64,000 nt of DNA, taken from NCBI GenBank assembly GCA_965227295.1, contig OZ245742.1:2336001-2400000 (forward strand), given 5' to 3'. Below, one piece after another: positions 13,605-46,894 of this stretch. A model generated the notes under the pieces. That model was given only the letters and a program-made list of their open reading frames with translations, made no database searches and had not been told where the DNA came from. The position numbers were made by a program, and so were the translations under genes. Each line of letters starts with the position of its first letter. The first letter of the stretch is position 1. The stretch is from Leptonemataceae bacterium (GTDB lineage: Bacteria > Spirochaetota > Leptospiria > Leptospirales > Leptonemataceae).

Positions 13605-13623
13605 CTTTCTACGAGTAAACTCT

Positions 13624-22600: not shown

Positions 22601-25600
22601 TCGCCGAAGACTATCACGGCGAAGGCGGCGTGGTAGACCAGGTGGCGGAGCTGGAGATCCAACAGCGAGTCGCATCCCAGAGACACGAATGGGACCTGCG
22701 CATGGAACAGTTCCGCAAGAAACGCCAGGAGTGGGGTGAAAACATTGCGCAGCTTACGAACGTGGGCGAGCAGAAGTGGAGCGACATGACCACCGAGATG
22801 GCCACGGCATGGAACGAGTGGCGGAAAGACTTCGACGCCGAAGCTAAGGCAGCGGAGGACCTGTACCTCGAACGTATTTCGGAAGCGATTGTAGACGAGC
22901 AAGAGTGGACGCAGGAATTCACGACGCTGGCGGCGCAAGGGACGGATGAGCAGACATTAAGAGAGCTGTACGAAGAAATCAACGCGATGGTGACAAACCT
23001 GAGAAGCGGACTACCGGCGGATATGCAGGTGGACATTAACGCGAACGAGATCCTGAACCGCGTGCTGGCGAACAAACCGGACACGCTGAATGAAAGCGTG
23101 GTGATGGCCGGGGAGTACGCGAACACGCAGATTTTCCTCAATGAACTGAAGGACCAGAACTTCGACAACAGCATCCAGGATCGTTATGATGATCTCAATG
23201 AACGTTACGGAGAAATGGCGCAGCGGCTCGTTAGACTGCAAAGCCTGGATAGTCTGTACGGATTGATTGACCTGTTCGATGAAACGATCGCAGAAGCGAA
23301 CGCCAGATTACAGTTGCAGATGGACCAGAAGATGGGCCAGACGAACTGGGTGAAGATGGGTGATTTGTATACGAAGCAGATCAAAACGGCACAGGCAGTG
23401 CTTACGGGACAGCCGAGCATTCCTGTATTTGCGCCGTCGTTCCACGATTACTTTTACTTAAAGCCGGACCTGCGCAGCGAGGCGGTGGTGAAGGATTCGG
23501 AAGGCAAAGAGTGGAACCTAACAGACACTGAGTCCATATTAGCGGACGGCGGACCGAACAGCGCGGAACTGGAAAGCATGGTGCGGCTTGTGCGCAACAA
23601 ACTGGAGAAGGAGTTCGAGCAAACCTACGATCCGGACGAGGAGGTGGACTACGAGGGCACCAGTGGGTTGGTGTTCATTAACTGGCAACAGGCGCTGGCC
23701 GATGCGAGTGCGGCGGCGATTAACCCCTCCACGTGCAACTTAGCCGAGTCCATGGATGAGTGCGCGCGGAACATTATGCAGTCCGGGTACACCGTGGGCC
23801 TCGTGGAAGGCGGGACGTTTGGACGGCACCACTTCGAGGAGTACTACCGCGCACTGACAATCCGCAATTTCTTCGACCAGATGGAAGCAGACGGTAGAGC
23901 CATGCGCGAGTCTACGGGCGGACGGATGGGGCGGGATTTCGGGACGAATTTGACGGCCTTGCACCGCGGTGCGGTGCGGAACATGAGTTCCGCTCTCGAT
24001 GTGCTGGAACGTAATTCGAAGTACGTCCAGATGCTTCAGGTTGCGAACAGGCAGTTACCGATTGCTCAGGCGCAAATCGGCGCGGCGCGGCGCGGACTGG
24101 ATCAATACGAAGACATGAACCAGCGTGTGCGAGTGGGCCTGAGCAAAGGCTGGCAGCGGAACGACGATGAGATCGATGCGGTGATTAAAGTCGGCGGCAC
24201 GATTGTGGCGGGTGTGCTGTATGCCGTCTCGTTCGTCTTTCCTCCGGCTGCAGCCATCGCCTCCGGTGTTCTTGCGGCAGTAGGTTCGTACTCCGGAGTG
24301 CGCGGTAGCTACGAAGGCGGCACGAAAGGCGCGCTGGCGGGAGCGGCGAGTGTGGTGCCGGCGATCGTTAGTAAAGGTGCGGTGAATACAAACTTAAGCT
24401 ACACGTTTCAGGAGGGCTGGAGTGTCGGTGTGGGCGCGGAGGTTTCGAAAGGCGTCGGCCTTGGTGTGAGCTATTCGGAACAAGCGGGTTGGGGTGGTAG
24501 CATCTCTCTCAGCGGCTCTCAGGGTGTCGGTCTTGATTTCAGCATTGGTGAGCAGGGTCGTTACGGTGTGGGCTTGAGTGTCGGCGGCTTATGGCAGACA
24601 GGGGATGCGAGTGGCGGTGCAGACCTGGGCTGGCGCGTTGGTTACAACACGGGGCCGGAAGGCGAAACCTATAGTGTCGGTCTGACGGGGTATGGCGGAG
24701 AGAAATACGGTCCGAATGGCAACGTCGGTATCGGTGTAACCTACAATCAGAATTTAGGTAACGGCTATTACATTAGTGGCGGAGCGAACGGCGGCGCCGG
24801 GTCCGGTTACTTCGGTGGAACGGCAAGCTGGAACTGGACGCGTTTCGGCGGCAGTTCGGCCACGTTCGGTCTGACGTATAAGCCGCCGCGGCCTGATGAT
24901 GACGGCAGTCCGATCGATACGCCGGAGGAGAAAACGGCGTTGGATATGTTTCTCGCCGCCGCACGGCGTGAGGCCGGTGAGGTCTGGGATGATGTCGGCG
25001 GCGGGCTTGGATGGCTGGGCGAGCAGGTGGCCGGCGGGTTTGGATGGTTGGGTGGTGCCGTTACTGGCGGTCTCGCGAGTGTGGCCGGAGCGCTGGGTTG
25101 GGAGAGTGGTGCGAATTGGATCCGAGGAAAGGGGTACTACGAGAACGCGTTGGTCGGAAATCTCGATTACTTCATGGATACTTCCGACGGGAGGCGAGTA
25201 TACTGGGATCCCGAGAAAGGGGCGTTCTTTACAGAGAATCCCAATGGCAATGGGCTGATCCTGAGCAACGCTCTTGGCGAACCTGAGTATCTTGCCGGGC
25301 CTGGTAGTGAGGTTATGTTTCAGCAAATCCAAAAAGATCCTGAACTAGGTCCCTATGTTCATTACTTAAGAGACCTCTCTCATGAGATTGCGGTTCAGCT
25401 TGGAATTGAACCACCGGAAATGCCCGACCCGAGGGACCCAAACTTTGCGCAGAAATTTGAGGAATGGAAAGATATATTCCGAGCGTGGAAGCATGCTACA
25501 GGTACATCGGATCTTGTTGGGATGACCGGAGGGCCTATAAGGCAGCCGCCAAAATTACTTGACGTTCTCAGAAAGCTTCACACGGCCGAAGGTTGGCGTG

Positions 25601-26256
25601 ATCTAAAGACTTATTTGAAAATCGCCTCAGGATTCGATGACACCAACGGGATGCGAGCACTCTTTGTTGGCTCCAAAGCTCCGAGTCTTCAAGACCTGGC
25701 AATGTTTGCGGCCATGAAAGATTGGAACGTCATTCATAGCGGCGGAACTAGAGTCACATTCGTTGACAGAGCCGGCAAGACTCAGTTGAATGTTCACACA
25801 CTTGCTTTCGAAGGTAAAGAACGAGCTTTTCATCATGTATATAATCGAGATGGAATTCGGGTCGACCCCGTGACAGGGGATGCTATACCCGTGGGAGATT
25901 TTACTGGCCTCAAGGGGGCAAGCCTGGATAAACTGATGCAACGCATTCCTTCTCCGCACGAAGTGCAGGACTGGAGAATTCGAAAATTAACTCCGGACAC
26001 TCACGGTGCCCTTGAGGGCTGGGAGTTTGTATGGCGTGAAAACGGTACAACAAAACGTTTGAGAATTCATTCGCCCGACGTTAAACGATCCGAGCATACG
26101 CATGCGGGTAGTGGTTGGACATTTAGATTGCAAGTAGGTAGACGCTATGTGGATAGCGACGGGCATATTCATGCAGCAGGAATCGGTAATGTGGATAGCC
26201 CGAACTACAATCCCGATGCAATAAATGAGACGCATATTCCGATTTACCTGGATTAA
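13624..26256 (+). CDS. Giant (~4210 aa) secreted polymorphic toxin-like protein with C-terminal Ntox30-type tip; architecture reminiscent of Leptospira TIGR04388 'longest' proteins
   Basis: Uninterrupted ORF. Basic-then-hydrophobic N-terminus, long acidic helical body, hydrophobic hairpin, Gly-rich beta region, and a lower-GC tip with RIH and THIP motifs. Family link is from recollection only. Confidence 0.8.
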   Translation: MNFRFAFPRSFLSLRRRYRRFARKSRLHRRSLSSFMSLLFLVQFVLAPTGVFAQTFDRLDEDVNKNRIGDYANAVEGADDEDDWNEFVGSGADLLRAEWEYRADLLLEQEVTAGAAREDLEAEKALAREAWEAELDDEIDQRRGRWRARTAAQSLDSLLDDIDYDELVAAVNDANALMFTDADDAATRVAAWDAIAGNRAALAKAAWESQLDAEMAALQSQGVALGAEEQAAFLSELERQRSLAESVYKSEESVFVTSARRKFVTEANAGDDLARALAQSTDPAEIARLLVQQTELEMERLGVLPGDVRFDGVDAQLILTGAGDYQDQVSQALEAGQSAWKSAIDELIARKIGFDEQVAASRQAGENQWATAYTTILDARETWLADVEAQIQRGLEAWDAAESGLAENRQLAEEELARLIESDRREFQEHNRGIGQLVSGASQTLETIVENQRWFQHKIADLQADIVRLNGESESFADGLAIGGTPEWTAWYNAHRTDHTNAEMQERQNRINVYTGELNYWNSLEAEYRQIITDAESVVHDQDMRDGGSGPGYFHDDGTEGDVLLLTATEFELKLARARLAVLEEERSRAKEVYDYALAATKLSAAEIETQLATAKDAYDLAETEYLTELSALNGGGSQSLTRVGLSDESSRAAGETTDLGPTLLDDVNTRAAELETEALELERARTALDNARQAYEQTVKLQVLIQNPQMLSDIGLLSTDPYEVNEDGENEGLRYEIFKAEKDLAEAREKMRQQEKAYVRLLYERETALRSTGFFNQTNERIILHEETKDRLAELSAIIGGGDALEDKLTALAAGTTLTDLYGNQAADALRDRITELADALANAAGPVTSETQNLNTGLGDFGPAHAVLDANFTGAERARLTQYADRVDGVLDALADISGLDWTGLGLPDMRALATSLRDHSTEPGTLAADYSTAFNDLQTELTAYQAYAAANAGAEASADYQARTAAVLIATDEYRLAAARYEQRYQLARSAQAQLETLLDRALTSGPILTDATLTGDARSAALATITAQKDEHTAVKAEALAAIESVDAGFEALVEAFTNHGERLGEYRTALGERNLAYREAGDFLTELHENLRGSLASQRSQLGFLLDENADEALLESMDAEHRRGLATAAAETNLRAIELLEGYLGVDRDVNVLLIEVTEDINHRLANYDATDAGQRRELTALRAVEQYVGRSANLLANLSEDERAELLAGLADERDFAIALRDFYVSDGVMDDAEQLAIRSGGNPEERRLLSAYFNPPAQMMFGEAAFGATAAESYLTSQHRRFAEQVRAGLIQSAITDRYHEEQENKITGLIQEMKTAVPALASLSASQLYNDSEPVDPSGLAHDTDAEDARRAILASLLSAAGSETGDRLTALYDIAQLETIYGPAIAVEVYTDLARVVDGYGSAGQELVRASQAIVDQAAEFDAEVDALLDAYDAKLSYEGQRDRVAAALALLEYEDPASGSTAAVGQADVDAHVANLDIPGGDDPAVDHPADWTPVDDTDGDSPGDAGWDPSYETEVFVQPYAGLDASELEQDRDDLNTALADWDNKRTELDTAIATYRAAKATFDAFVAANPGSEGTPAYEAEITTYAAAVNDMYFAYREHNNFFTALEFVAERSAASGATFFAAAQAIDASAVVTTEESAFLSAADVLLTERDDRAQTEFDFTQAAVDVGTARNRYTEAESALATETTEADDFIADLGDRVDVRISAVSTDAVSANELIDVLAELRRFFTEKQARGEEINPTIVNSLEAAGQVLDELAALKDYQARGASVSVEDARQERTDAQEESEQMQKFGEVLLELQQFIANTEAAGAGLHEQGAKIKELLAKYEKAKDDYGSVYTFSAEVEDAMTLLRDHAWAQHKRQLVDAYLAKRGQLSVDEFMEDVVEGRFFSQPVNPNQTEAPTVTFGGGVAPEAEEISGDFLGQTLDAAQLSEVRALLSEYAARARIDDAGIVADIDALLATEDAAVRAAIEDEALVTVFNNFNSANAVGVGNHAQLPDVLKNYGLVSAYESYAVLLQLDLDDADDRTLAMQRFLDTMTTENRAAAEPVLSEYLTNFDARNPSFYLPAELKARHAKERYFAMRYTDELSPGDVTALNDWLAAEKYDAGVSGAVGEAVRTAYILDNYYGESADDYLDSIDADLTALTGTGVNATERQAFVLGLTGLLSAAGDAYVEPEAMIAGEVVYDNFTFADNTQALKEALRNEQIAHTVELAAAERAAVRAGYFYDYKSGARTIRSFKSYVNIGLGGLAEPDEATQIAGQLAELEHQAEHRLGAFVGLVEQYSSFAYNPDPAYDNNLNIRDTIAEINTDFVLQDGQYAKNPDGSYVFEGGLNNTQVRLDEYVNANTAAFTAADRDAYAQVQKWEGQVDQLQETIVTAGQEAVIVSNALGTYGSDVGAITNALQGAREEFEQRERDFGEAEEEYENAEDNLRDARNAYRAQQELVLTNYNALKSAEEELDRLSGLHDQAVLEEYSQQTNEQGEVETIGDTLETVQARYEAADEAYQTQLEKIQALEEKLDRQVTKAELAAAAEVQTNRQETEDWAMHAMRFSRAESILEDKINDLHVQIDNLKGQMEYAGLGQHFDISRSRFVGKRQDLDGYLDYGSAAYIDSERMHRARYRHLEGFLRGEIGPWDLIYSSLGGIYAKPYLGVTINFTEASGGIYYTDVPGWSEGLRVNSGGRYDLYGFAQEYNQGKTGTNDILLNLVKDQFPTAWDGEAWAYARATTDAASFNNGMTALYNSDVAGQAVIYAAMGAAGLGFLFQLYAKDTAFKDQLDRAMDRLYGLPTTNLVQQGNELKNLYAELHRLTDIDSVEKLRDVLDDPEYGLTADDVALIQGSGTLDQLIWKGGKEDLSLDDVVGANGLPIAQDKAIHDEFGFYVRDGEFSAGNITANPTGTDKYGRRTALMVSADEFTDALAAMSQTQYEIEREEYFRAAETMTEDRVQADTVTILDEREEFYGTLMQQAASVGVQFEMYRALAEDYHGEGGVVDQVAELEIQQRVASQRHEWDLRMEQFRKKRQEWGENIAQLTNVGEQKWSDMTTEMATAWNEWRKDFDAEAKAAEDLYLERISEAIVDEQEWTQEFTTLAAQGTDEQTLRELYEEINAMVTNLRSGLPADMQVDINANEILNRVLANKPDTLNESVVMAGEYANTQIFLNELKDQNFDNSIQDRYDDLNERYGEMAQRLVRLQSLDSLYGLIDLFDETIAEANARLQLQMDQKMGQTNWVKMGDLYTKQIKTAQAVLTGQPSIPVFAPSFHDYFYLKPDLRSEAVVKDSEGKEWNLTDTESILADGGPNSAELESMVRLVRNKLEKEFEQTYDPDEEVDYEGTSGLVFINWQQALADASAAAINPSTCNLAESMDECARNIMQSGYTVGLVEGGTFGRHHFEEYYRALTIRNFFDQMEADGRAMRESTGGRMGRDFGTNLTALHRGAVRNMSSALDVLERNSKYVQMLQVANRQLPIAQAQIGAARRGLDQYEDMNQRVRVGLSKGWQRNDDEIDAVIKVGGTIVAGVLYAVSFVFPPAAAIASGVLAAVGSYSGVRGSYEGGTKGALAGAASVVPAIVSKGAVNTNLSYTFQEGWSVGVGAEVSKGVGLGVSYSEQAGWGGSISLSGSQGVGLDFSIGEQGRYGVGLSVGGLWQTGDASGGADLGWRVGYNTGPEGETYSVGLTGYGGEKYGPNGNVGIGVTYNQNLGNGYYISGGANGGAGSGYFGGTASWNWTRFGGSSATFGLTYKPPRPDDDGSPIDTPEEKTALDMFLAAARREAGEVWDDVGGGLGWLGEQVAGGFGWLGGAVTGGLASVAGALGWESGANWIRGKGYYENALVGNLDYFMDTSDGRRVYWDPEKGAFFTENPNGNGLILSNALGEPEYLAGPGSEVMFQQIQKDPELGPYVHYLRDLSHEIAVQLGIEPPEMPDPRDPNFAQKFEEWKDIFRAWKHATGTSDLVGMTGGPIRQPPKLLDVLRKLHTAEGWRDLKTYLKIASGFDDTNGMRALFVGSKAPSLQDLAMFAAMKDWNVIHSGGTRVTFVDRAGKTQLNVHTLAFEGKERAFHHVYNRDGIRVDPVTGDAIPVGDFTGLKGASLDKLMQRIPSPHEVQDWRIRKLTPDTHGALEGWEFVWRENGTTKRLRIHSPDVKRSEHTHAGSGWTFRLQVGRRYVDSDGHIHAAGIGNVDSPNYNPDAINETHIPIYLD

Positions 26257-26716: not shown

Positions 26717-26782
26717 TGCCGAAAACCTATCTCAGGTGACCTCCCGCCATTCATAACGATCATGACTCCCTCGCACGTGTCG

Positions 26783-27066
26783 CCGATTGTAGTTGCAAAC
26801 GTAGATTGCTCGTCGCATACTTGCGAAAATGTGCCCAACAGGCACACCGAAATGTCTGATGTAATGGAGACGTTTCGGATGAGATCAGAGGATCTTTAAC
26901 AGGCAAGCAGTGATAGTCTGAACGGACTGACTGCGGCGAGAAGAAACAGCAGAGGTTCGCCTCTGCCGAAACGATATGCTGAATTCCGCACACGTGTGCG
27001 GAATTCGCCGCTCCGTAAGCGCGGACCGTTCAGTTCTTTGCGGCTAATATCTGATTCACAAGCGTT
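26783..27066. repeat. Junction element copy A (core only)
   Basis: Near-identical to the cores of copies B-D; palindrome at 26981-27006; fused directly to cassette 1. Confidence 0.9.
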
Positions 27067-30000
27067 GTGCTGGCGAACAAACCGGACACGCTGAATGAAA
27101 GCGTGGTGATGGCGGGAGAATACGCGAACACGCAGATTTTCCTCAATGAACTGAAGGACCAGAACTTCGACAACAGCATCCAGGATCGTTATGATGATCT
27201 CAACGAACGTTACGGGGAAATGGCGCAACGACTCGTTAGACTGCAAAGCCTGGATAGTCTGTACGGATTGATTGACCTGTTCGATGAAACGATCGCAGAA
27301 GCGAACGCCAGATTACAGTTGCAGATGGACCAGAAGATGGGCCAGACGAACTGGGTGAAGATGGGTGATTTGTATACGAAGCAGATCAAAACGGCACAGG
27401 CAGTGCTTACGGGACAGCCGAGCATTCCCGTGTTTGCACCGTCGTTCCACGATTACTTTTACTTGAAGCCGGACCTCCGCAGTGAAGCGGTGGTGAAAGA
27501 CTCGGAAGGCAAAGAGTGGAACCTAACAGACACTGAGTCCATATTAGCAGACGGCGGACCGAGCAGCGCGGAACTGGAAAGTATGGTGCGGCTGGTGCGC
27601 AACAAGCTGGAGAAAGAGTTCGAAGCGACATACGATCCGGATGAGGAAGTGGACTACGAAGGAACGAGTGGGCTGGTGTTTATTAACTGGCAACAGGCCC
27701 TTGCGGATGCCAGCGCGGCCGCGATTAACCCATCCACCTGTAACTTAGCAGAAAGCATGGATGAATGCGCCCGGAACATTATGCAGTCCGGGTATACCGT
27801 GGGCCTTGTGGAAGGCGGGACGTTTGGACGGCACCACTTCGAGGAGTACTACCGCGCACTGACAATCCGCAATTTCTTCGACCAGATGGAAGCAGACGGT
27901 AGAGCTATGCGTGAAAGTACCGGCGGTCGCATGGGGCGGGACTTCGGGACGAATTTGACGGCCATACACCGCGGTACGGTGCGAAACATGGACTGGGCGT
28001 TGAATACTCTGGAACGTAATTCGAAGTACGTCCAGATGCTTCAGGTTGCGAACAGGCAGTTACCGATTACTCAGGCGCAAATCGGCGCGGCGCGGCGCGG
28101 GCTGGATCAATACGAAGACATGAACCAGCGCGTGCGGGTGGGACTGAGCAAAGGCTGGCAGCGGAACGACGATGAGATAGATGCGGTGATTAAAGTGGGC
28201 GGCACGATTGTGGCGGGTGTGCTGTATGCCGTCTCGTTCGTCTTTCCTCCGGCGGCAGCCGTCGCTTCCGGAATCTTAGCAGCAGTAGGTTCGTACTCCG
28301 GAGTGCGTGGAAGTTATGAAGGCGGCACAAAGGGCGCGCTGGCGGGAGCGGCGAGTGTGGTGCCGGCGATCGTTACCAAAGGTGCGGTGAATACAAACTT
28401 AAGCTACACGTTTCAGGAGGGCTGGAGCGCCGGTGTGGGCGCGCAGGTGACAAAGGGCATTGCCGCCGGTGTGAATTACTCCGAACAGGCCGGTTGGGGC
28501 GGCAATGTTAGCATCGGCCTCGGCGATTCACCGTTCGCTCTTGATTTGAGCGTGGGTGAATACGGCCGGTACGGCGCGGGGCTGACGTATAACTTTATTC
28601 AGTCGCCGAATGACGTCAGTAATCAACTGACCAGCGGCTTACGCGTGGGTTTTAATCAGGGGCCGGAAGGTAATACGTATAGCCTGGGGCTGAATGCTTC
28701 ACTGGTGGATACCGTGAACAGCACGAGTGGGAGCCTGGGTCTGGGGCTGACTTACAACAAGAACTTCGGAACCGGCTTTTATGTGAGCGGCGGGGCCGGC
28801 GGCGGTACGCATAGCGGCGGTCTCGGTACAACAGCGCAGTATAACTGGAGCAGATTCGGGGAGGACTCGACGACATTCGGTCTGACGTACAGCAAGCCGC
28901 GGGATTGGGATGGTTCTGACGGTCCGAATACTCCTGCGCAGAAGAATCTGCTCGACCTGTTTTTGGCGTCCGGCACAGGGCGGACGATGCGGGAGTTCTT
29001 TGGGGATGTCAGCCGGATGGGTATGACCGACGCGGAGAAAGAACAGGAGTATCAACAGTACCTTGCGGCGAAAGAGAAGGCGGAGTTCAACCGATTGCTG
29101 AGTCTGGAGGGTTTCTCCAGCATTGGAGATGCCGCGTTGATGGGCGTCGCCATTCTTCGTAACAACGACTTTGAGCCGGATTCCAAGCAAGGGAATCATG
29201 AACAATACGAAGAGATGGTGGATCGCCTGGAGCAGCGGAAGCTGGAGAAGGGCGATGAGCTATCGAAACTCGACGTCGCCGCTGTTGCGCAAGAGATGGC
29301 CGGGGAGGCCGAACTCAGCATCAATTGGATCGATACGCACGAGCGAGCTGTTGCTATTAAGCAGCAGGATATTCGGGAAGAGAGGTTGGCGAATGCGCCT
29401 GCGGATTCTTCCGAGGAAGGTGTTGCTTTCTACGGAGAAGGGGGCAGTGGATCCTGGCCATCACCTCAGCCAACCATTGTCGGTCCCGGTTATCACATTC
29501 CCGGGCCCGATATTAGCTTTCCTGATTTATGGGATAATCCGAATACGAAAGATGATAACTCAAACCCGTGGCAGTTGGATTGGAATCTTGACCGTTCGAA
29601 CGAAATTCCGGATTGGGGGGACTATGGAGCTACGGGAGAATGGGAAGGATACGATGGGGGCGGGGGCCGCTTTGGTGGTCACGGAGCTTCTTATGGAGTT
29701 GAAGATAAGGAATGGGATGTAGTATTCTTCCAGACTAACGTTACCTTCGGTATTGGCGTTGGCGGCTCAGCCGGATGGGGCGGGGCAATTGACCTCGGAA
29801 ATTTGAATTATGCCTTTGGGACACCAGCAGGTATCTATTATGGTTTGGATGACGGCCTTTCCGGAACAATCGGTATGTCTAATGTGCAAAACCCAAGAAG
29901 TCTCTTTACTAATGCCACAACCGATACTTCAATGGTTTTTCTAGTCGGTGGTAACCATAAGGTCATCCATGAGACCCATGATCCCAATACTGCGAGGCAT

Positions 30001-30123
30001 GCCTTAGGCGTTGTCATTGGCGCCAGAGTTGCCGCAACAACAACGCCAGGGTTTCAGACAGTCGATCCATGGAGCGCCTATCTAAAATGGAGGGAGGATT
30101 TGCGTCAATCAATGATGCAGTAA
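27067..30123 (+). CDS. Orphan toxin cassette 1 (5'-truncated copy plus alternative C-terminus)
   Basis: Matches the giant gene from 23062 (VLANKPD) and diverges after about LDLFLA (~28970). No clear native start. Confidence 0.85.
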   Translation: MLANKPDTLNESVVMAGEYANTQIFLNELKDQNFDNSIQDRYDDLNERYGEMAQRLVRLQSLDSLYGLIDLFDETIAEANARLQLQMDQKMGQTNWVKMGDLYTKQIKTAQAVLTGQPSIPVFAPSFHDYFYLKPDLRSEAVVKDSEGKEWNLTDTESILADGGPSSAELESMVRLVRNKLEKEFEATYDPDEEVDYEGTSGLVFINWQQALADASAAAINPSTCNLAESMDECARNIMQSGYTVGLVEGGTFGRHHFEEYYRALTIRNFFDQMEADGRAMRESTGGRMGRDFGTNLTAIHRGTVRNMDWALNTLERNSKYVQMLQVANRQLPITQAQIGAARRGLDQYEDMNQRVRVGLSKGWQRNDDEIDAVIKVGGTIVAGVLYAVSFVFPPAAAVASGILAAVGSYSGVRGSYEGGTKGALAGAASVVPAIVTKGAVNTNLSYTFQEGWSAGVGAQVTKGIAAGVNYSEQAGWGGNVSIGLGDSPFALDLSVGEYGRYGAGLTYNFIQSPNDVSNQLTSGLRVGFNQGPEGNTYSLGLNASLVDTVNSTSGSLGLGLTYNKNFGTGFYVSGGAGGGTHSGGLGTTAQYNWSRFGEDSTTFGLTYSKPRDWDGSDGPNTPAQKNLLDLFLASGTGRTMREFFGDVSRMGMTDAEKEQEYQQYLAAKEKAEFNRLLSLEGFSSIGDAALMGVAILRNNDFEPDSKQGNHEQYEEMVDRLEQRKLEKGDELSKLDVAAVAQEMAGEAELSINWIDTHERAVAIKQQDIREERLANAPADSSEEGVAFYGEGGSGSWPSPQPTIVGPGYHIPGPDISFPDLWDNPNTKDDNSNPWQLDWNLDRSNEIPDWGDYGATGEWEGYDGGGGRFGGHGASYGVEDKEWDVVFFQTNVTFGIGVGGSAGWGGAIDLGNLNYAFGTPAGIYYGLDDGLSGTIGMSNVQNPRSLFTNATTDTSMVFLVGGNHKVIHETHDPNTARHALGVVIGARVAATTTPGFQTVDPWSAYLKWREDLRQSMMQ

Positions 30124-31331: not shown

Positions 31332-31839
31332 TGTAAGCTTGAAATACTCGTCGACGCCTCCAGGCGGCCCCACGCCGGGTTATCCCTTGCGAGTCTTTGA
31401 ATGAGCCGGATTTCTTCGACTGGAATTCGCGGCCGGCGCGGTCGATTGTAGTTGCAAGGGAAGATTGCTCGTAGCCTACTTGCGAAAATGTGCCCAACAG
31501 GCACGCCGGAATGACTGCTGTAACAGAGACATTTCGGATGAGATCAGGGGATCTTTAACAGGCAAGCAGTGATAGTCTGAACGGACTGACTGCGGCGAGA
31601 AGAAACAGCAGAGGTTCGCCTCTGCCGAAGCGATATACCGAATTCCGCACACGTGTGCGGAATTCTCCCTTCGAGAGTCGGGGCCGCTGAGTTCTTTGCG
31701 GCTAATGTCTGATTCACAAGCGTTAGCGATGCGGAGGGTGGCGCGCAGCGCCAGTCTCGCGTCTTCGCGAGACCGCAGCGAAGCGGAGCCCGTAGCAGCG
31801 CGACGGCCCGCCGCCTCCGCGGCGCGGCGGGCCGGAACG
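31332..31839. repeat. Junction element copy B (IS end + transposase scrap + core + hairpin module), interrupted by the intron
   Basis: Begins TGTAAGCTTGAAATAC; minus strand reads RPRIPVEEIRLIQRLARDNPAWG; palindrome at 31640-31665. Confidence 0.9.
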
Positions 31840-33723
31840 GTGTGCCCGGCATGGGCGATGACTACCGGTGAGAGTCCGGAACCGTAGGTCAGCAAAACGG
31901 TTAGCAGAGGGCAAGGGTTCCATCGCGAGGTGTGGCCTGAAGGAAGCCGTATGCGAAATTCCGATCCGACGAACAGGAATCTGATGAGGCTGGTGTCCCC
32001 GGGCAAGTCTGCCGTACAAGACGAAGCCCGCTGACCGAATGGGGGCACGAGTAGATCAGGCGGGTGCGGAAGGAAAGCCATCGTTCTTACCCGGGGAGGT
32101 CTGCGTGCACGGCGTCTTAAATGGCGCGGAAGATCGGGCGACCGATATTCCAGGGTGCGCGCAGAAGTCAGCAGAGGCCATAGTAAGCCGTGCGATGCAG
32201 TTTCCAGAGCGATAGGCATCAAACGGACGAAGGGCCGAACGATATTTCAGAGGGGAAAGCGGTAATCCTGAATCATGCAGTATGAGCTGGACTTCGTGTT
32301 GGCGGTATCATGCCCGGCGATTACCGGTGGAAACCTCGCGGATGAATCGAGGATGAGTGATAAGAATCACGCAACGACGAATCTGATGGATCGGATTCTT
32401 GAGCGCGAGAACATGGAACGTGCGTTGCGCCGGGTCATTTCCAATAAAGGGAAGCCCGGCGTGGACGGTGTAACGGTGGAGGCGCTCAAGCCGTATCTTA
32501 AGGTACATTGGGAACGTATTAAGCAAGAGCTTCGTGACGGTCGCTACCGACCGCAGCCGGTGCGCCGGGTGGAAATCCCGAAGCCGGACGGCGGCGTGCG
32601 TCTGCTGGGTATCCCATGTGCCGTGGATCGTTTGATCCAGCAGGCCGTGTTACAGGTTCTGAATCCGATCTTCGATGCGAAATTCTCGGAATCCAGCTAC
32701 GGTTTCCGGCCGGGGCGCAGTGCTCACGATGCGGTGCGCGCGGCCCGGGATCACGTACGCGCCGGATTCACGATCGTCGTGGACATCGACATCGAAAAGT
32801 TTTTCGACAACGTAAACCACGACATCTTGATGGCCCGGGTTGCACGCACGCTCAAAGACAAAGCGGTGCTGAAGCTGCTGCGTCGCTATCTCCAGGCGGG
32901 CGTGCTGATTAACGGCGTGCGTCTGGTGGGCGAAGAGGGTGTGCCGCAGGGTGGGCCGATCAGCCCGCTGCTGGCGAACATCATGCTGGACGACCTGGAC
33001 CGGGAACTGGAAAAACGCGGCCATCGCTTCTGTCGTTACGCCGATGATTGCAACATCTATGTGCGATCCATGGGCGCGGGACGCAGGGTGAAGGCGAGCA
33101 TTACTAAGTTCCTGGAAAAGAAACTTAAGCTGCGGGTGAACCCGGCGAAGAGTGCGGTGGATTATCCCCGGAAACGTAAGTTCCTGGGGTTTCGCATCCT
33201 GCGCCGCAAGAAGGGCGGGGTGCAAATCTTTATCGCGGAGCGTTCCATCGAACGACTGAAGGACGGCATCCGGCGGCTCACCAGAGCCCGGACGCCGATC
33301 TCATTCGAGGAACGCATCCGCCGACTGGTCGTGTATCTGCGCGGCTGGGCGGCATATTTCGCGCCGGGCGAAAACACCGCGGCCTTGAGCAAGATCTCCC
33401 AGTGGATGCGCCATCGGCTGCGCATGTGTCTGTGGCGACAGTGGCGACTCCCGCGAACTCAGATTCGGGAACTCACCAACAGAGGGCTCTCCTTGCGAGA
33501 TGCATTCCGGCTCGTCACCATGGCACGCAGCAAAGGCCCCTGGCGCATCTCCGGCACTCACCTGATGGGAATCGCCTTCTCTCCCGGCTACTTTCGCCGG
33601 CTCGGCCTCCTGAACATCGAAGAATTTTGCTTACGTAGCCGTCAAGGATATCGAACCGCCGTATACGGACCCGTACGTACGGTGGTGTGAGGGGCGGCGG
33701 GGAGAACCCGCCGCCTACTCGAT
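31840..33723 (+). mobile_element. Group II intron, bacterial class C (IIC)
   Basis: 5' GTGTGCCCGGCATGGG, GTGAGAGTCC, TTCTTACCCGGGGAGGTCTG; short domain V GAACCGCCGTATACGGACCCGTACGTACGGTGGTGTGAGGGG; domain VI ending CCTACTCGAT. Removal recreates GGAACG|CCCA as in the empty copies. Confidence 0.95.
32353..33690 (+). CDS. ltrA: Group II intron reverse transcriptase/maturase without endonuclease domain
   Basis: NKGKPGVDG, IPKPDGGVRLLGIP, SYGFRPGRS, PQGGPISPLLANI, RYADD; stop inside domain V. Start may be 32275, 32353 or 32386. Confidence 0.95.
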   Translation: MSDKNHATTNLMDRILERENMERALRRVISNKGKPGVDGVTVEALKPYLKVHWERIKQELRDGRYRPQPVRRVEIPKPDGGVRLLGIPCAVDRLIQQAVLQVLNPIFDAKFSESSYGFRPGRSAHDAVRAARDHVRAGFTIVVDIDIEKFFDNVNHDILMARVARTLKDKAVLKLLRRYLQAGVLINGVRLVGEEGVPQGGPISPLLANIMLDDLDRELEKRGHRFCRYADDCNIYVRSMGAGRRVKASITKFLEKKLKLRVNPAKSAVDYPRKRKFLGFRILRRKKGGVQIFIAERSIERLKDGIRRLTRARTPISFEERIRRLVVYLRGWAAYFAPGENTAALSKISQWMRHRLRMCLWRQWRLPRTQIRELTNRGLSLRDAFRLVTMARSKGPWRISGTHLMGIAFSPGYFRRLGLLNIEEFCLRSRQGYRTAVYGPVRTVV

Positions 33724-33751
33724 CCCACATGCTTCTCGCGCGTAAACGCAA

Positions 33752-36700
33752 ACGGCGAGGCCTGGGCCTATGCGCGCGCAACGACGGACGCGGCGAGTTT
33801 CAACAACGGCATGACGGCGTTGTACAACGCCGACGTTGCGGGACAGGCGGTGATCTACGCGGCGGGGCTGGGATTTCTGTTTCAGTTGTATGCGAAGGAC
33901 ACGGCGTTCAAGGATCAACTGGATCGTGCGATGGATCGGCTGTACGGATTGCCGACGACGAACCTGGTGCAACAGGGCAACGAACTGAAGAACCTGTACG
34001 CGGAACTGCACCGGCTCACGGACATAGACAGCGTGGAGAAACTGCGGGATGTGCTGGACGATCCGGAGTACGGCTTAACCGCGGATGATGTGGCATTAAT
34101 CCAGGGCAGCGGAACGTTAGATCAACTGATCTGGAAGGGCGGCAAAGAGGACTTAAGCCTGGATGATGTGGTGGGCGCGAACGGCCTGCCGATTGCGCAG
34201 GATAAGGCGATTCATGATGAGTTTGGATTTTATGTGCGAGACGGGGAATTTTCGGCCGGCAATATCACTGCGAATCCGACAGGGACGGACAAATACGGCC
34301 GCAGAATCGCACTGATGGTGAGCGCCGATGAATTCACGGACGCACTCGCGGCGATGTCACAGACGCAGTACGAGATCGAACGCGAAGAGTACTTCCGGGC
34401 AGCAGAGACAATGACGGAAGACCGTGTACAGGCGGACATGGTGACGATCCTGGATGAACGCGAAGAGTTCTATGGCACGTTGATGCAACAGGCCGCCAGC
34501 GTGGGCGTGCAGTTTGAAATGTACCGCAAACTCGCGGAAGACTATCACGGCGAAGGCGGCGTGGTAGACCAGGTGGCGGAGCTGGAGATCCAACAGCGAG
34601 TCGCATCCCAGAGACACGAATGGGACCTGCGCATGGAACAGTTCCGCAAGAAACGCCAGGAGTGGGGTGAAAACATTGCGCAGCTTACGAACGTGGGCGA
34701 GCAGAAGTGGAGCGACATGACCACCGAGATGGCCACGGCATGGAACGAGTGGCGGAAAGACTTCGACGCCGAAGCTAAGGCAGCGGAAGATCTGTACCTC
34801 GAACGTATTTCGGAAGCGATTGTAGACGAGCAGGAGTGGACGCAGGAATTCACAACGCTGGCGGCGCAAGGGGCGGACGAGCAGACGTTAAGAGAGCTGT
34901 ACGACGAAATCAATGAGATGGTGACGAATCTCAGAAGCGGCCTAGCGGCGGATATGCAGGTGGAGATCAACGCGAATGAGATCCTGAACCGCGTGCTGGC
35001 GAATAAACCGGACACACTGAACGAAAGCGTGGTGATGGCGGGGGAGTATGCCAACACGCAGATTTTCCTGGATGAGCTGAAGGACCAGAACTTCGACAAC
35101 AGCATTCAGGATCGTTATGATGATCTCAATGAACGTTACGGAGAAATGGCGCAGCGGCTCGTTAGACTGCAAAGCCTGGATAGTCTGTACGGATTGATTG
35201 ACCTGTTCGATGAAACGATCGCAGAAGCGAACGCCAGATTACAGTTGCAGATGGACCAGAAGATGGGCCAGACGAACTGGGTGAAGATGGGCGACTTGTA
35301 TACGAAGCAGATCAAAACGGCACAGGCAGTGCTTACGGGACAGCCGAGCATTCCCGTGTTTGCGCCTTCGTTCCACGATTACTTTTACTTGAAGCCGGAC
35401 CTCCGCAGTGAAGCGGTGGTGAAAGACTCGGAAGGCAAAGAGTGGAACCTAACAGACACTGAGTCCATATTAGCAGACGGCGGACCGAGCAGCGCGGAAC
35501 TGGAGAGCATGGTGCGCCTGGTGCGCAACAAACTGGAGAAGGAGTTCGAGCAAACCTACGATCCGGATGAGGAGGTGGACTACGAGGGCACCAGTGGATT
35601 GGTGTTCATTAACTGGCAACAGGCGCTGGCCGATGCGAGTGCGGCGGCGATTAACCCCTCCACGTGTAACTTAGCGGAAAGCATGGATGAATGCGCCCGG
35701 AACATTATGCAGTCCGGGTATACCGTGGGCCTTGTGGAAGGCGGAACGTTTGGACGCCACCACTTCGAGGAATACTACCGCGCACTGACAATCCGCAACT
35801 TCTTCGACCAGATGGAAGCAGACGGTAGAGCTATGCGCGAGAGTACCGGTGGACGCATGGGCCGGGACTTCGGGACGAACTTAACGGCCTTGCACCGTGG
35901 TGCGGTGCGGAACATGAGTTCCGCTCTCGATGTGCTGGAACGTAATTCGAAGTACGTCCAGATGCTTCAGGTTGCGAACAGGCAGTTACCGATTGCTCAG
36001 GCGCAAATCGGCGCGGCGCGGCGCGGACTGGATCAATACGAAGACATGAACCAGCGTGTGCGGGTGGGACTGAGCAAGGGCTGGCAGCGGAACGACGATG
36101 AGATCGACGCCGTGATTAAAGTCGGCGGCACGATTGTGGCGGGTGTGCTGTATGCCGTCTCGTTCGTCTTTCCTCCGGCGGCAGCCATCGCTTCCGGTGT
36201 TCTTGCAGCAGTAGGTTCGTACTCCGGAGTGCGGGGTAGCTACGAAGGCGGCACGAAAGGCGCGCTGGCGGGAGCGGCGAGTGTGGTGCCGGCGATCGTT
36301 AGTAAAGGTGCGGTGAATACAAACTTAAGCTACACGTTTCAGGAGGGCTGGAGTGTCGGCGTGGGCGCGGAGGTTTCGAAAGGCGTCGGCCTTGGTGTGA
36401 GCTATTCGGAACAAGCGGGTTGGGGTGGTAGCATCTCTCTCAGCGGCTCTCAGGGTGTCGGTCTTGATTTCAGCATTGGTGAGCAGGGTCGTTACGGTGT
36501 GGGCTTGAGTGTCGGCGGCTTATGGCAGACAGGGGATGCGAGTGGCGGTGCAGACCTGGGCTGGCGCGTTGGTTACAACACGGGGCCGGAAGGCGAAACC
36601 TATAGTGTCGGTCTGACGGGGTATGGCGGAGAGAAATACGGTCCGAATGGCAACGTCGGTATCGGTGTAACCTACAATCAGAATTTAGGTAACGGCTATT

Positions 36701-38217
36701 ACATTAGTGGCGGAGCGAACGGCGGCGCCGGGTCCGGTTACTTCGGTGGAACGGCAAGCTGGAACTGGACGCGTTTCGGCGGCAGTTCGGCCACGTTCGG
36801 TCTGACGTATAAGCCGCCGCGGCCTGATGATGACGGCAGTCCGATCGATACGCCGGAGGAGAAAACGGCGTTGGATATGTTTCTCGCCGCCGCACGGCGT
36901 GAGGCCGGTGAGGTCTGGGATGATGTCGGCGGCGGGCTTGGATGGCTGGGCGAGCAGGTGGCCGGCGGGTTTGGATGGTTGGGTGGTGCCGTTACTGGCG
37001 GTCTCGCGAGTGTGGCCGGAGCGCTGGGTTGGGAGAGTGGTGCGAATTGGTTGGCAGGGAATGGGTATGTCGACAACGCCACGGCGGAAGCGAATCAGCT
37101 GGCGGAGTTTCGGGCTTATGCCGCGAGAAAAGCGGAATTGGAACAATTAAAGCTAGGGCTAAGAGAAGGGAAAGTCCTAGTTAGAGAAACGGAAGATGGC
37201 CGTTGGATCTTTGTGGATGTCGAAACAGGAGAGTTCTATACTGACGATCCATTCGTTGGAGGACTCGTTCGTTCCGATGAAGAAGGTGTCTTCTATCTAG
37301 CTGGTCCGGTGGTTCCCCCGGCTTTGGCGGAAGCTATCGCGAAAGTGGAACAAACTATCGAAGATAGTGAACCCTTCCCGGATGCTGGAGATGCTGGCGA
37401 CGTTCTCGAGACAAGCGAAAAAATTCTTGAACAAGCAGAGCGACTGAAGAATTTCCGTAAGGCGTTGGGTGCACTCGGCAAGCTTCTTTCCGCGTATGAT
37501 ACTATTAATGATTCGGTGACAAGCATTAAGACACTGTCTGAGCGAGCAGAGGTGCAGGAGGAAATTGAGAGACTTGCCTTGAAGGAAATAGTTCATGACG
37601 AATGGGCCCGGAATACTGAAGCACGATACCGAGTGTCCCAGCGACTAAAAGAGCTAAACTCGGAACTGGGGAAAGTTACGACTACGGAGCAGCGGGAAAC
37701 TCTGACTCGGAGAATCCAACGGTTAGAGAGATTCCGTGATGAGGTACTATTACCTGCTAAACAGGAGCTTCTAATCCTAGAACGATTGAATCAATCTGTC
37801 GATAGAAGGCATAGCGGAGTCGGGGCGGCATTCAACGACTACTTAGAAATCGCCTATCCTTCAAAGGGAGCAGATCCATTCTACGATCCCCATTCAACAT
37901 TCGATTATGATGGGAACCCTCATGAACTGAATCTGACTGATCAAAGGAAGTTGAGGCTTCGGAGTGAGTATTACTCTGCTGTCGCATTGGGAGAGCAATA
38001 CTTCAATGAGACAGGTGCGAATGTGCGTTCACGGAGCATCTTTGGATGGCTTCCTTTTGGGGAATGGGGAAGCAAGGCTGGGAGAAAGCTCGATCAGCGC
38101 GGGTACGCGAGTCTCGATACGACTTTAAAGGGCTACTTGTGGCAAATGGCTTATCGGGCAGAAACTCTTCCAAACTGGCATGTGCGATATATCGATTTCG
38201 TTTCTGATAACTACTAA
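33752..38217 (+). CDS. Orphan toxin cassette 2 (longest; first ATG at 33811) with alternative helical C-terminus
   Basis: Matches the giant gene from 21809 (GEAWAYARA) to 25119 (ESGANW), with a 9-nt in-frame deletion; then a different tip. Confidence 0.88.
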
Positions 38218-39197: not shown

Positions 39198-40349
39198 AAT
39201 AGTCAAGATTCCATCTGACACTCCGATATAATTTGTATCGGAGGAAAGAGATGACAGCAGAACAAAAAATCGTAAAGCACCGGGTGGGCATCTTGAGGCT
39301 GGCCCGTACTCTGAATAACGTTGCAGAGGCTTGCCGGGTGATGGGCGTATCACGCGATACGTTCTACCGGTATCAGCGGTTGTACGAGACCGGAGGCGAA
39401 GAGGCCCTGAAGGATCTCACGCGGCGCAAGCCGAACAAGAAGAACCGGATTCCGGCGGATGTGGAAGACGCGGTGATCGAGTTCACGTTCGAGAAGCCGG
39501 CGCACGGTCAATTGCGCGTGTCGAATGAGCTGCGCAAGCGCGGCGTTTCGATCTCACCGGGCGGCGTGCGTCAGGTCTGGTTGCGGCACGACATGGAGAC
39601 GTTCAAGAAGCGTCTGAAGGCCCTGGAAGCCCGCGTCGCGCAAGAGGGGATCATTCTCACCGAGGCACAGGTCGCGGCGCTTGAGAAAGGCCGCCAGGAC
39701 AAAGAAGCGCACGGCGAGGTCGAATCGCACCACCCCGGCTATCTGGGCTCGCAGGACACGTATTACGTGGGCAATATCAAGGGCGTGGGGCGGATCTACC
39801 AGCAGACCTTCATCGACACGTACGCTAAGGTCGGCTTTGCAAAACTTTACGATCGCAAGAACGCACTGACGGCGGCCGACTTGCTGAACGATCGTGTGTT
39901 GCCGTTCTACGCGGACTACAACATCCCGCTGCTGCGCGTGCTCACCGATCGCGGCACGGAGTACTGCGGCAAGCCGGAGAATCACGAGTACGAGTTGTAC
40001 CTCGCGATGGAGGACATCGATCACACCAAAACCAAAGCGCGGCATCCGCAAACGAACGGCGTCTGCGAACGCTTTCACAAGACGATTCAGGAAGAATTCT
40101 ACGCCGTCGCGTTTCGCAAGAAACTTTACTCAAGCATCGAGGAGCTGCAAGCCGATCTGGATGAATGGATGCTCGAGTATAACCAGGAACGGACGCACAG
40201 CGGCAAGTACTGCTTCGGCAAGACGCCGGCGCAAACGTTCGCTGAATCCATCGCCGTGGCGCGTGAAAAGATGCTGCATAAACAGCATCAGGTATCGACC
40301 TGATCATATCTGACAGGCAGGAGTGTCAGATCGGGTGTTGGCTAGTACA
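39195..40349 (+). mobile_element. IS481-family insertion sequence with 7-bp target duplication TATGAAG
   Basis: Imperfect 26-bp IRs TGAAATAGTCAAGATTCCATCTGACA / TGTCAGATCGGGTGTTGGCTAGTACA; TATGAAG at 39188-39194 and 40350-40356. Confidence 0.9.
39251..40303 (+). CDS. IS481-family DDE transposase
   Basis: HTH (NVAEACRVMGVSRDTFYR), GSQDT, LTDRGTEY, PQTNGVCERFHKT; GGAGG RBS before ATG 39251. Confidence 0.95.
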   Translation: MTAEQKIVKHRVGILRLARTLNNVAEACRVMGVSRDTFYRYQRLYETGGEEALKDLTRRKPNKKNRIPADVEDAVIEFTFEKPAHGQLRVSNELRKRGVSISPGGVRQVWLRHDMETFKKRLKALEARVAQEGIILTEAQVAALEKGRQDKEAHGEVESHHPGYLGSQDTYYVGNIKGVGRIYQQTFIDTYAKVGFAKLYDRKNALTAADLLNDRVLPFYADYNIPLLRVLTDRGTEYCGKPENHEYELYLAMEDIDHTKTKARHPQTNGVCERFHKTIQEEFYAVAFRKKLYSSIEELQADLDEWMLEYNQERTHSGKYCFGKTPAQTFAESIAVAREKMLHKQHQVST

Positions 40350-40901: not shown

Positions 40902-41034
40902 TTGTCTCTTCCGGTCGATGTGTAAAGGAGCAGTTAAATGCTTGCAAGTCGGCGCGAGCCAATCGAGTCCTTCAGCCAGACTGGCACCAGCAATACATAT
41001 TCGAAATCATTCAGAGGACGTCTTATGATTAGGT

Positions 41035-41607
41035 TGTAAGCTTGAAATACTCATCCACGCCTTCAAGCGGCTTCCCAATGATAAGTAGAATGCAGCCCGC
41101 CGAGCACAGGTCTTCGCAAGACCCGTACGTTATTTTTTTGGTGGCGGTTCTGTCTGACGGCCCTCCGGCGAACCGAGGTCCACAGACGCGTGCGTGCGGT
41201 GCCGATTGTAGTTGCAAACGTAGATTGCTCGTCGCATACTTGCTGAAATGTGCCCAACAGGCACGCCGAAATGGCCACTGTAACGGAGACGTTTCGGATG
41301 AGATCAGAGGATCTTTAACAGGCAAGCAGTGATAGTCTGAACGGACTGACTGCGGCGAGAAGAAACAGCAGAGGTTCGCCTCTGCCGAAGCGATATGTTG
41401 AATTCCGCACACGTGTGCGGAATTCGCCCTTCGAGAGTCGGGGCCGCTGAGTTCTTTGCGGCTAATATCTGATTCACAAGCGTTAGCGATGCGGAGGGTG
41501 GCGCGCAGCGCCAGTCTCGCGTCTTCGCGAGACCGCAGCGAAGCGGAGCCCGTAGCAGCGCGACGGCCCGCCGCCTCCGCGGCGCGGCGGGCCGGAACGC
41601 CCAGAGC
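41035..41607. repeat. Junction element copy C (IS end + transposase 3' scrap + core + hairpin module; empty intron site 41599|41600)
   Basis: TGTAAGCTTGAAATACTCATCC; minus strand reads VLRRPVLGGLHSTYHWEAA; palindrome at 41400-41425. Confidence 0.9.
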
Positions 41608-41611
41608 AGCA

Positions 41612-44996: not shown

Positions 44997-45513
44997 TGTA
45001 AGCTTGAAATACACATCAAAGCCTCCAGGCGGCCCCACGCCGGGTTATCCCTTGCGAGTCTTTGAATGAGCCGGATTTCTTCGACTGGAATTCGCGGCCG
45101 GCGCGGTCGATTGTAGTTGCAAACGTAGATTGCTCGTCGCATACTTGCTGAAATGTGCCCAACAGGCACGCCGAAATGTCTGACGTAATGGAGACGTTTC
45201 GGATGAGATCAGAGGATCTTTAACAGGCAAGCAGTGATAGTCTGAACGGACTGACTGCGGCGAGAAAAGGCAGCAGAGCTTCGCCTCTGCCGAAGCGATA
45301 TGCTGAATTCCGCACACGTGTGCGGAATTCGCGTCTCGGTTCCCGGAGGATGTTCAGCTCTTTGCGGCTAATGTCTGATTCACAAGCGTTAGCGATGCGG
45401 AGGGTGGCGCGCAGCGCCAGTCTCGCGTCTTCGCGAGACCGCAGCGAAGCGGAGCCCGTAGCAGCGCGACGGCCCGCCGCCTCCGCGGCGCGGCGGGCCG
45501 GAACGCCCAGAGC
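44997..45513. repeat. Junction element copy D (empty intron site 45505|45506)
   Basis: TGTAAGCTTGAAATAC start; same transposase scrap as copy B; palindrome at 45305-45330. Confidence 0.9.
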
Positions 45514-45666
45514 CGCAGAAGCGAACGCACGCCTGCAACTCCAGATGGACCAGAAGATGGGCCAGACGAACTGGGTGAAGATGGGCGACTTGTACACGAA
45601 GCAGATCAAAACGGCACAGGCAGTGCTTACGGGACAGCCGAGCATTCCCGTGTTTGCGCCTTCGTT
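45514..45666 (+). pseudogene. Orphan cassette 4 stub truncated by IS
   Basis: AEANARLQLQ...VFAPSF matches the giant gene from 23289 and stops at the IS end (45667). Confidence 0.85.
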
Positions 45667-46680: not shown

Positions 46681-46894
46681 ACATTCCCGGCAGGGGCGCT
46701 GAGAACAACCAGTCCGGCCCGGAGCGCGAAGCGCGGAGGGTGTACATCAGGCTGGCATCGTTGCTACGGCTGTCGCATGATCACGGACATGATTCGATGT
46801 CTGTCACTCGACAGATGATGCTCAGGAAAGGCGCTCAGGCTAATTCGTCCAGTACTGAGCGCGTTTTTTGGCTGAGGTTCGAAGCTGTCCGGAC

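Follow-up and report, generated by a model that had tools for sequence, protein, structure and literature searches.

The window analyzed here is a stretch of 64,000 nucleotides (nt) from a Leptonemataceae bacterium (Spirochaetota; contig OZ245742.1, positions 2,336,001 to 2,400,000 of the forward strand), and all coordinates below count from its first letter. It carries a polymorphic-toxin locus at 13543–46700, in which a gene encoding 4,237 amino acids (aa; 13543–26256), with a C-terminal Ntox30 domain as its sole Pfam match, is followed by four orphan cassettes, each a 5′-truncated copy of that gene. Three of the four are preceded by a repeat of 400–500 nt, inside which lies a GC-rich module that ends in a perfect 11-bp hairpin. 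A few nucleotides behind this hairpin in one of the three copies, and ahead of orphan cassette 2, sits a group II intron; the same site is empty in the other two. We conclude that the element is most probably an intact bacterial group II intron retroelement of class C (IIC), and that it was probably inserted by the ordinary IIC rule. The features on which this account draws are collected in Table 1.

Table 1. Features of the intron, its target and the surrounding toxin cassettes
Feature	Position	Strand	Remarks
Group IIC intron, 1,884 nt, complete	31840–33723	+	Rfam domains, alignment of relatives, intron-free copies
Intron-encoded reverse transcriptase (RT)/maturase	32353–33690	+	RVT_1 and GIIM domains, YADD motif, no HNH domain
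AGGAA motif	31941–31945	+	Kept in aligned relatives; checked by sequence, not by bulge structure
Candidate exon-binding site 3 (EBS3; G)	31955	+	A in every properly aligned relative; unverified assignment
EBS1 (CGU)	32013–32015	+	8-nt loop of a hairpin in domain I (D1); covariation with 5′ exon
Domain V (D5)	33655–33686	+	32 nt, CGC in basal stem
Domain VI (D6)	33688–33721	+	Bulged A at 33717, 7 nt from 3′ splice site
Conserved upstream unit, copy m1, ~285 nt	31438–31724	+	Other copies at 26782–27066, 41196–41484, 45103–45390
GC-rich (78%) multi-hairpin module, 115 nt	31725–31839	+	5′ exon; identical at 41485–41599 and 45391–45505
Target hairpin	31804–31834	+	Perfect 11-bp stem, 9-nt loop, arms CGGCCCGCCGC / GCGGCGGGCCG
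Intron-binding site 1 (IBS1; ACG)	31837–31839	+	Last 3 nt of 5′ exon
3′ exon start, CCCA	33724–33727	+	C33724 is IBS3; beyond, sequence departs from empty sites
Unoccupied site 1	41564–41603	+	Hairpin, GAACG|CCCA, junction 41599|41600
Unoccupied site 2	45470–45509	+	Hairpin, GAACG|CCCA, junction 45505|45506
Orphan cassette 1	27067–30123	+	5′-truncated copy of the 4,237-aa gene
Orphan cassette 2	33724–38217	+	5′-truncated copy; homology from ~33750, matching ~21810 of parent
Orphan cassette 3	41600–44410	+	5′-truncated copy; joined at parent ~23290
Orphan cassette 4 (stub)	45506–45666	+	5′-truncated copy; joined at parent ~23290

The intron, its reverse transcriptase and its pairing with the exons

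The ribozyme was recognized by the Rfam scan through three domain models, all on the plus strand and above the gathering score: D1D4-3 at 31919–32085 (133.9 bits), D1D4-1 at 32127–32235, and D5/D6 (RF00029) at 33654–33723. The 5′ end, GTGTGCC at 31840 (a GUGUG start), matches the GTGYGCC of relatives in an alignment of those 55 of the 76 fetched loci that have enough upstream sequence. The 3′ end, CCTACTCGAT, with its last base at 33723, is aligned in 53 relatives; the same terminus can be written as CUACUCGAU / CTACTCGAT. Both ends are fixed, because the relatives align and because two intron-free copies of the flank are there for comparison.

The longest open reading frame (ORF) for the RT runs from 32275 to 33690 (471 aa), and its alignment to the RT of GsI-IIC starts around the Met at 32353. 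On TIGR04416, the NCBIfam model of group II RT/maturases, the score is 419 bits. Against solved structures, the best matches are to class C enzymes, namely the GsI-IIC RT (6ar1; E value of 1.1e-150) and the IIC RT of 7uim (1.9e-104), as compared with 5.6e-38 for LtrA and 2.3e-34 for the RT of 6me0. The Pfam scan of the 471-aa ORF returned RVT_1 and GIIM only; the endonuclease (En, HNH) domain is absent, as in class C. The frame continues through domain V to a stop at 33688–33690, while many relatives have an earlier stop, and the last ~12 residues may be ribozyme sequence that happens to be translated, not conserved protein.

The RNA carries the marks of its class as well. Passages of Toor et al. 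2006 (PMC1702495) describe IIC ribozymes as having a shortened D5 with CGC replacing AGC, an IIC-specific AGGAA in the epsilon-prime bulge and an IBS1–EBS1 pairing of 3–4 bp; they also describe the class as lacking EBS2, with a stem-loop of the 5′ exon standing in for IBS2. Here, D5 is short and contains CGC (it reads ACCGCC..., ACCGCCGUAU...), AGGAA is present and is kept as GAAGGAAG in the aligned relatives, IBS1 and EBS1 pair over 3 bp, and there is a stem-loop in the 5′ exon. The original prediction of a class IIC intron is thus upheld by the Rfam domains, the RT matches, D5/D6 and the RT tree described below.

To locate EBS1, each column of the alignment was scored for complementarity to each sequence’s own 5′ exon. 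The counts refer to 49 relatives, the 55 aligned loci less L027, L068 and L070, in which the boundary is misaligned, and L029, L048 and L049, in which the flank is itself intron sequence. The column at 32013 is complementary to the sequence’s own exon over 3 nt in 46 of the 49 relatives and over 4 nt in 30. For the window intron, the two partners are CGU(A) in EBS1 and (A)ACG at the end of the exon, which pair over 3 bp. Since CGU pairs with ACG, the intron sits at a site that its own EBS1 recognizes. Another candidate, CGTTC at 32082–32086, is complementary to GAACG, but it was rejected as EBS1, the motif being conserved in relatives with T-rich exons. The candidate for EBS3, an assignment that is unverified, is the G at 31955, which would pair with the C opening the 3′ exon.

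Some flanks of the relatives hold an observation of their own. In L029, L048 and L049, what stands upstream is the 3′ end of a further intron copy (...CCTACTCGA), and in L056 the 3′ flank is the beginning of one; in such tandem IIC introns, an intron apparently finds its target in the D6 hairpin of another copy. In the window, a 10-mer, CCCGCCGCCT, is shared between the left arm of the target hairpin (31807–31816) and the 3′ strand of the intron’s D6 (33707–33716), probably by chance in GC-rich sequence.

By its protein, the intron is a fairly divergent member of class C. The RT is at most 57% identical to relatives found in a scan of genome contigs; in a set of 5.8 billion proteins, it is 81% identical to one metagenomic fragment (P0003) and at most 62% identical to all others, the closest relatives lying on contigs of 1.7–2.4 kb. 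Its 90% cluster in that set has one member on one contig (5.94 Mb), and the genome therefore has a single intron copy or only identical copies. The Rfam scan of the 64-kb window found this one copy and no second, and a plasmid collection searched for near-identical intron DNA gave only D5 matches of 38–49 nt.

The target hairpin and its filled and empty copies

The intron is inserted between GGAACG and CCCA, the stem of the hairpin being separated from it by the 5-nt spacer GAACG (31835–31839). The original prediction had placed it 5 nt past an 11-bp hairpin in GGAACG|CCCA, which is correct to the nucleotide. It had further named two unoccupied matching sites, and these are equally real: no base distinguishes the three copies in the 115 nt that precede the insertion point, and over 150 nt one position differs between the filled copy and each empty copy. 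Downstream, CCCA is common to all three, after which the filled copy departs (CCCACATGC vs CCCAGAGC). Comparison of the filled with the empty sites reveals no target-site duplication. The sites fix both the boundaries of the intron and its target to the nucleotide, and the two empty ones are bona fide potential targets. The three are copies of one 400–500-nt repeat, and hence not independent occurrences.

In its energetics, the hairpin is unexceptional for its GC content. Its DNA folding energy is −17.6 kcal/mol (z = −1.6), which was equaled in 13 of 200 shuffles. The exact 31-nt hairpin pattern occurs three times in the window (31804, 41564 and 45470), as compared with none expected from 100 shuffles. 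Perfect stems of at least 9 bp with a loop of 3–10 nt nevertheless number no more than 10 in the whole window; three of these are the target hairpin, four are another palindrome of the same repeat, and one is the intron’s D6.

What follows the stem is not what a terminator would have. Intrinsic terminators combine a GC-rich stem-loop, which is present, with a T/U tract directly after the stem, which is absent: the tail reads GAACGCCCA, and the final 8 nt before the intron are free of T. A terminator scan of the window did not report the hairpin. In the corresponding 8 nt of the 49 relatives, T occurs a median of six times (minimum two), and at least four times in 45. A hairpin of at least 6 bp ends within 9 nt of the site in 40 of the 49, and the modal spacer is 5 nt (11/49), the same as in the window. 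Judged from these sequences, then, the geometry of the site is canonical and its tail is not. Genome composition alone does not explain the tail, for relatives in GC-rich hosts (Acidobacteriota, Bradyrhizobium and delta-proteobacterial metagenome-assembled genomes) keep their T tracts.

The original prediction was therefore right that the hairpin has no U-tract and no evident attC boxes; the proposal built on this, that it may represent a further target class, fares less well. The geometry and the 3-bp IBS1–EBS1 pairing are the standard IIC mode, and inverted repeats or palindromes already appear as IIC sites in two papers. Toor et al. 2006 (PMC1702495) have IIC introns following terminator motifs “or other inverted repeats”, and Leon et al. 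2010 (PMC3001079) place them “usually after palindromic sequences”. The direct precedent for a site without a U tract is B.h.I1(X), which passages of the former paper (PMC1702495) describe as having a stem-loop without an extended U run, a 3-bp IBS1 and no ligated exons in vitro; as far as descriptions can be compared, its stem-loop is mispaired, as opposed to the perfect 11 bp in the window. The three target specificities that Zimmerly & Semper 2015 (PMC4424553) list, in a passage on bacterial introns, are homing sites, terminator motifs and attC sites. Set against this list, a hairpin with neither a U tract nor attC character extends the range slightly without amounting to a new class.

The original prediction had also taken the insertion as support for the module folding as single-stranded DNA. 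This argument is weak. A hairpin used as an IIC target can extrude as a DNA stem-loop, but the transient extrusion of a stem-loop is implied by every IIC target, an ordinary terminator as well, and nothing here is special to the module. Overall, the observation is confirmed and its interpretation partly supported.

The explanation that we favor stays within what has been established for class C, with PMC1702495, PMC3001079, PMC4424553 and PMC7306698 as its support in the literature. The intron would have reverse-spliced into DNA and then been reverse-transcribed. Such an entry requires a DNA stem-loop a few nucleotides upstream, here presumably the 11-bp hairpin that ends 5 nt before the site; an IBS1–EBS1 pairing of 3–4 bp, for which ACG with CGU would serve; and, as IBS3, the base that opens the 3′ exon, which would be C. 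One of the three identical copies was entered, most simply after their duplication. The missing T tract would then reflect the EBS1 of this lineage (CGU, not A-rich) together with the lack of a terminator-type tail, rather than a different mode of recognition. The anatomy of the intron, its ends, EBS1, the filled and empty sites and the unusual flank are shown by the sequence comparisons, while the mechanism, the order of events and any present-day mobility are what we infer.

Several observations weigh against this explanation. First, the IBS1 pairing extends over just 3 bp, the fourth position opposing A to A, and no convincing EBS3 column emerged from covariation over 37 sequences; EBS3 could not be located in this way because T, at the start of the 3′ exon in 27 of the 37, leaves little variation. 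Second, the flank is a clear outlier in T content, so that the target is not a typical terminator. Third, the hairpin does not appear to follow closely on a co-oriented gene: the nearest upstream plus-strand ORFs end between 530 nt (44940) and ~1.1 kb (30706) before the hairpins, with a minus-strand ORF or an insertion sequence (IS) fragment in between. Fourth, an open frame from the ATG at 31729 crosses the splice junction into the orphan cassette, an arrangement that would be atypical for class C. Finally, only one intron copy was seen.

The filled and empty sites are a natural substrate for the question whether a stem-loop and 3–4 paired bases, with no T tract, suffice for a IIC intron, a rule that the literature has inferred mostly from terminators. 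In addition, the intron lies directly before an orphan toxin cassette and could affect its expression. Beyond these points, it behaves as its class is known to.

The repeat and the toxin cassettes

The repeat that holds the target is composite. The conserved upstream unit occurs four times, and the module follows it in three of these places; it is absent from the copy at 26782–27066, which abuts orphan 1 directly. Every unit copy contains a perfect 26-bp palindrome, GAATTCCGCACACGTGTGCGGAATTC (26981–27006, 31640–31665, 41400–41425 and 45305–45330; DNA fold z = −6.5), followed by a hypervariable stretch of ~25 nt, and the palindrome may be a site for protein binding. In all four units, the terminator scan that passed over the target hairpin also reported a canonical terminator-like hairpin with a T tract on the minus strand (31627–31606, 41387–41366, 26968–26947 and 45292–45271), the orphan cassettes lying behind it in its own direction of reading. 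At a permissive E value of up to 10, an Rfam search of 41150–41650 returned no match by which the module could be a known RNA, and ARAGORN found neither tRNA nor tmRNA in the window.

The orphan cassettes differ from one another in their C-termini, and each is followed by a small gene, among these genes for HEAT-repeat and WD40 proteins. The Pfam scan gave no match for any of these C-termini, and a comparison of orphan cassette 1 with the ESM Atlas gave no usable match. Orphan 4 is cut short at ~45666 by an IS481-family element on the minus strand (45666–46700). A 177-nt piece of the same element lies at 41034–41210, just left of the module copy at 41196, and 38-nt stretches resembling its end lie left of two other copies (31332–31369 and 44997–45034). 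A second, unrelated IS481-family transposase gene is found at 39233–40303. Elsewhere in the window, PurH (6089–7675) has nearest relatives that are at most 78% identical in the 5.8-billion-protein set, the named ones being labelled MAG (metagenome-assembled genome), and the host lineage appears to be sparsely sampled.

Alternative readings and relation to known class C introns

Given a hairpin of this kind in three identical places, the intron might belong to a IIC lineage that has adapted to the repeat’s hairpin and the following ACG|C as its cognate site. That EBS1 (CGU) fits a site present three times in identical form is in keeping with this, as are the G at the candidate EBS3, which pairs with the C of the 3′ exon where all aligned relatives have A, the outlying composition of the flank among the 49 relatives, and the scarcity of strong perfect hairpins in the window, where three of the ten are the target. 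However, one site out of three is filled, one intron copy is known, and the RT cluster counts a single member on a single contig. Furthermore, the same EBS1 (CGTA) is found in L020, whose site is T-rich and terminator-like, so that this EBS1 is not specific to the module; the EBS3 assignment is unverified; and T-less hairpins have already been described as IIC sites. We therefore regard module-specialized homing as unlikely. Were it correct, IIC introns would have a third kind of target in addition to terminators and attC, the other copies would be filled in time, and the expression or rearrangement of the orphan cassettes may be affected.

A related reading emphasizes the lineage rather than the repeat. 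A divergent IIC lineage, with a retuned EBS1 (CGU) and possibly a retuned EBS3 (G), would home into a hairpin that is neither terminator nor attC and that ends the leader of a toxin cassette. Its support lies in the matching EBS1, the candidate EBS3 and the outlying flank, and we consider it quite unlikely. If it held, the intron would be a cassette-junction element for toxin arrays, akin to IIC-attC introns in integrons, with the means to gate or rewire how the following cassette is expressed.

The open frame noted above raises a further possibility, namely that the intron interrupts a coding sequence running from the ATG at 31729 into cassette 2 (with cassettes 3 and 4 entered in the same way), and that splicing is needed for the protein. 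Indeed, in each of the three copies the module ATG (31729, 41489 and 45395) opens 37 codons (111 nt at 31729–31839) whose frame is kept on into the orphan cassette; in the filled copy, 33724 shares its phase with an ATG at 33811, and the ORFs at 41456–44410 and 45320–45802 traverse the module. Orphan 1, moreover, has an in-frame GTG exactly at its junction (27067). Against this, neither the module ATG nor the orphan-1 GTG is preceded by a Shine-Dalgarno sequence, unlike several housekeeping genes in the window, and an open frame is expected by chance at 78% GC. Only two independent types of junction are involved, for which the chance of being in phase is about 1 in 9. The first 60 codons from the module ATG gave no match to longer proteins in the 5.8-billion-protein set, which is weak evidence. 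We regard the module segment as non-coding, as a judgment and not as a proof, and an interrupted gene as very unlikely.

It is also conceivable that the intron made the junction. Leon and Roy reportedly put forward, in the Journal of Bacteriology in 2009 (cited in PMC4424553), a cassette-formation model for IIC-attC introns. By analogy, two intron copies at different sites might have recombined and so joined the module to a fragment of a toxin gene. In line with this, homology between filled and empty copies stops just 4 nt past the insertion point, and orphan 2 is joined at another position of the parent (~21810) than orphans 3 and 4 (~23290). However, the CCCA shared with the empty sites fits simple insertion into a pre-existing module, the window holds no second intron copy, and the hairpin sets both the end of the module and the point of insertion, hence their closeness. 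We would give such a recombination very little credence.

Nor need one assume that an ancestral intron, present before the duplication, was precisely removed from the lineage of the two empty copies: one loss would suffice, as these share the downstream junction CCCAGAGC and so a common ancestor, but bacterial group II introns insert far more often than they are lost precisely, and the nearly identical flanks, with one difference in 150 nt, suggest recent events. We consider this reading just as improbable as the recombination.

Insertion by the ordinary IIC rule thus remains our preferred reading, and there is the question of which branch of class C the intron belongs to. The original prediction had called for an RT phylogeny against IIC-attC introns, the integron-associated members of the class. 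According to passages of Leon et al. 2010 (PMC3001079), the intron-encoded proteins of IIC-attC introns form a monophyletic subset, the introns lie opposite to the adjacent cassette genes, and they can influence the expression of downstream cassettes. As stand-ins, we took two integron-borne plasmid introns, L077 and L078, so labelled from their context: the former adjoins a blaIMP-4 cassette, and the latter, next to intI1, is flanked by arr-2 and aac(6′)-Ib. Each runs against the direction of its cassettes, in contrast to the window, where intron and toxin cassettes are all on the plus strand.

In a first RT tree (82 rows, quick method), the window RT joined the non-attC group at its base by a long branch (0.79), and an approximately unbiased (AU) test did not reject its union with the attC pair (p = 0.817), the constrained tree being 22 log-likelihood (lnL) units better. 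This tree, made without the close relatives of the window RT, is superseded by a second, to which P0003 (81% identical), P0005 (62%), P0006 (60%), P0007, P0008, P0010 and P0012 were added, and which has 55 rows after thinning. In this more careful tree, the window RT joins P0003 (support 100/100), then P0005 and P0006 (100/95), and then P0012 (100/95), and the clade is nested among terminator-associated introns. The 51 non-attC RTs group together (96/92), as do the two of the attC pair (100/96). Forcing the five-member clade of the window RT together with the attC pair costs 14.9 lnL units, for a borderline p of 0.041 in the AU test.

The target points in the same direction. The core consensus of attC sites is GTTRRRY and RYYYAAC; neither motif occurs on either strand of the three modules. 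Pfam scans of the ORFs in the 64-kb window revealed no integrase or tyrosine recombinase, the only recombination enzymes of the scans being IS481-type transposases. From the RT tree and AU test, the shared orientation with the cassettes and the lack of attC motifs, we conclude that the intron is probably not of the IIC-attC kind, a statement that carries the weight of two representatives and a borderline test.

How, then, does the intron compare with the systems already known? With the IIC-attC introns, such as S.ma.I2, it shares membership of class C and a structured DNA target at the junctions of a cassette array, which is not a terminator. Unlike them, it has an RT that falls outside the integron clade, no attC core motifs, no integrase in the window and the same orientation as its cassettes. 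With the terminator-targeting GsI-IIC of Geobacillus stearothermophilus and B.h.I1 of Bacillus halodurans, it shares the RT family, the lack of an En domain, the CGC of D5, AGGAA, the IBS1–EBS1 pairing of 3–4 bp and a site a few nucleotides past a stem-loop. It differs from these two in having a site without a T tract after the stem, an EBS1 that is CGU instead of A-rich, and a hairpin that apparently lies not behind a co-oriented gene but inside a repeat preceding orphan toxin cassettes. The type of site is thus atypical for class C, but it has precedent.

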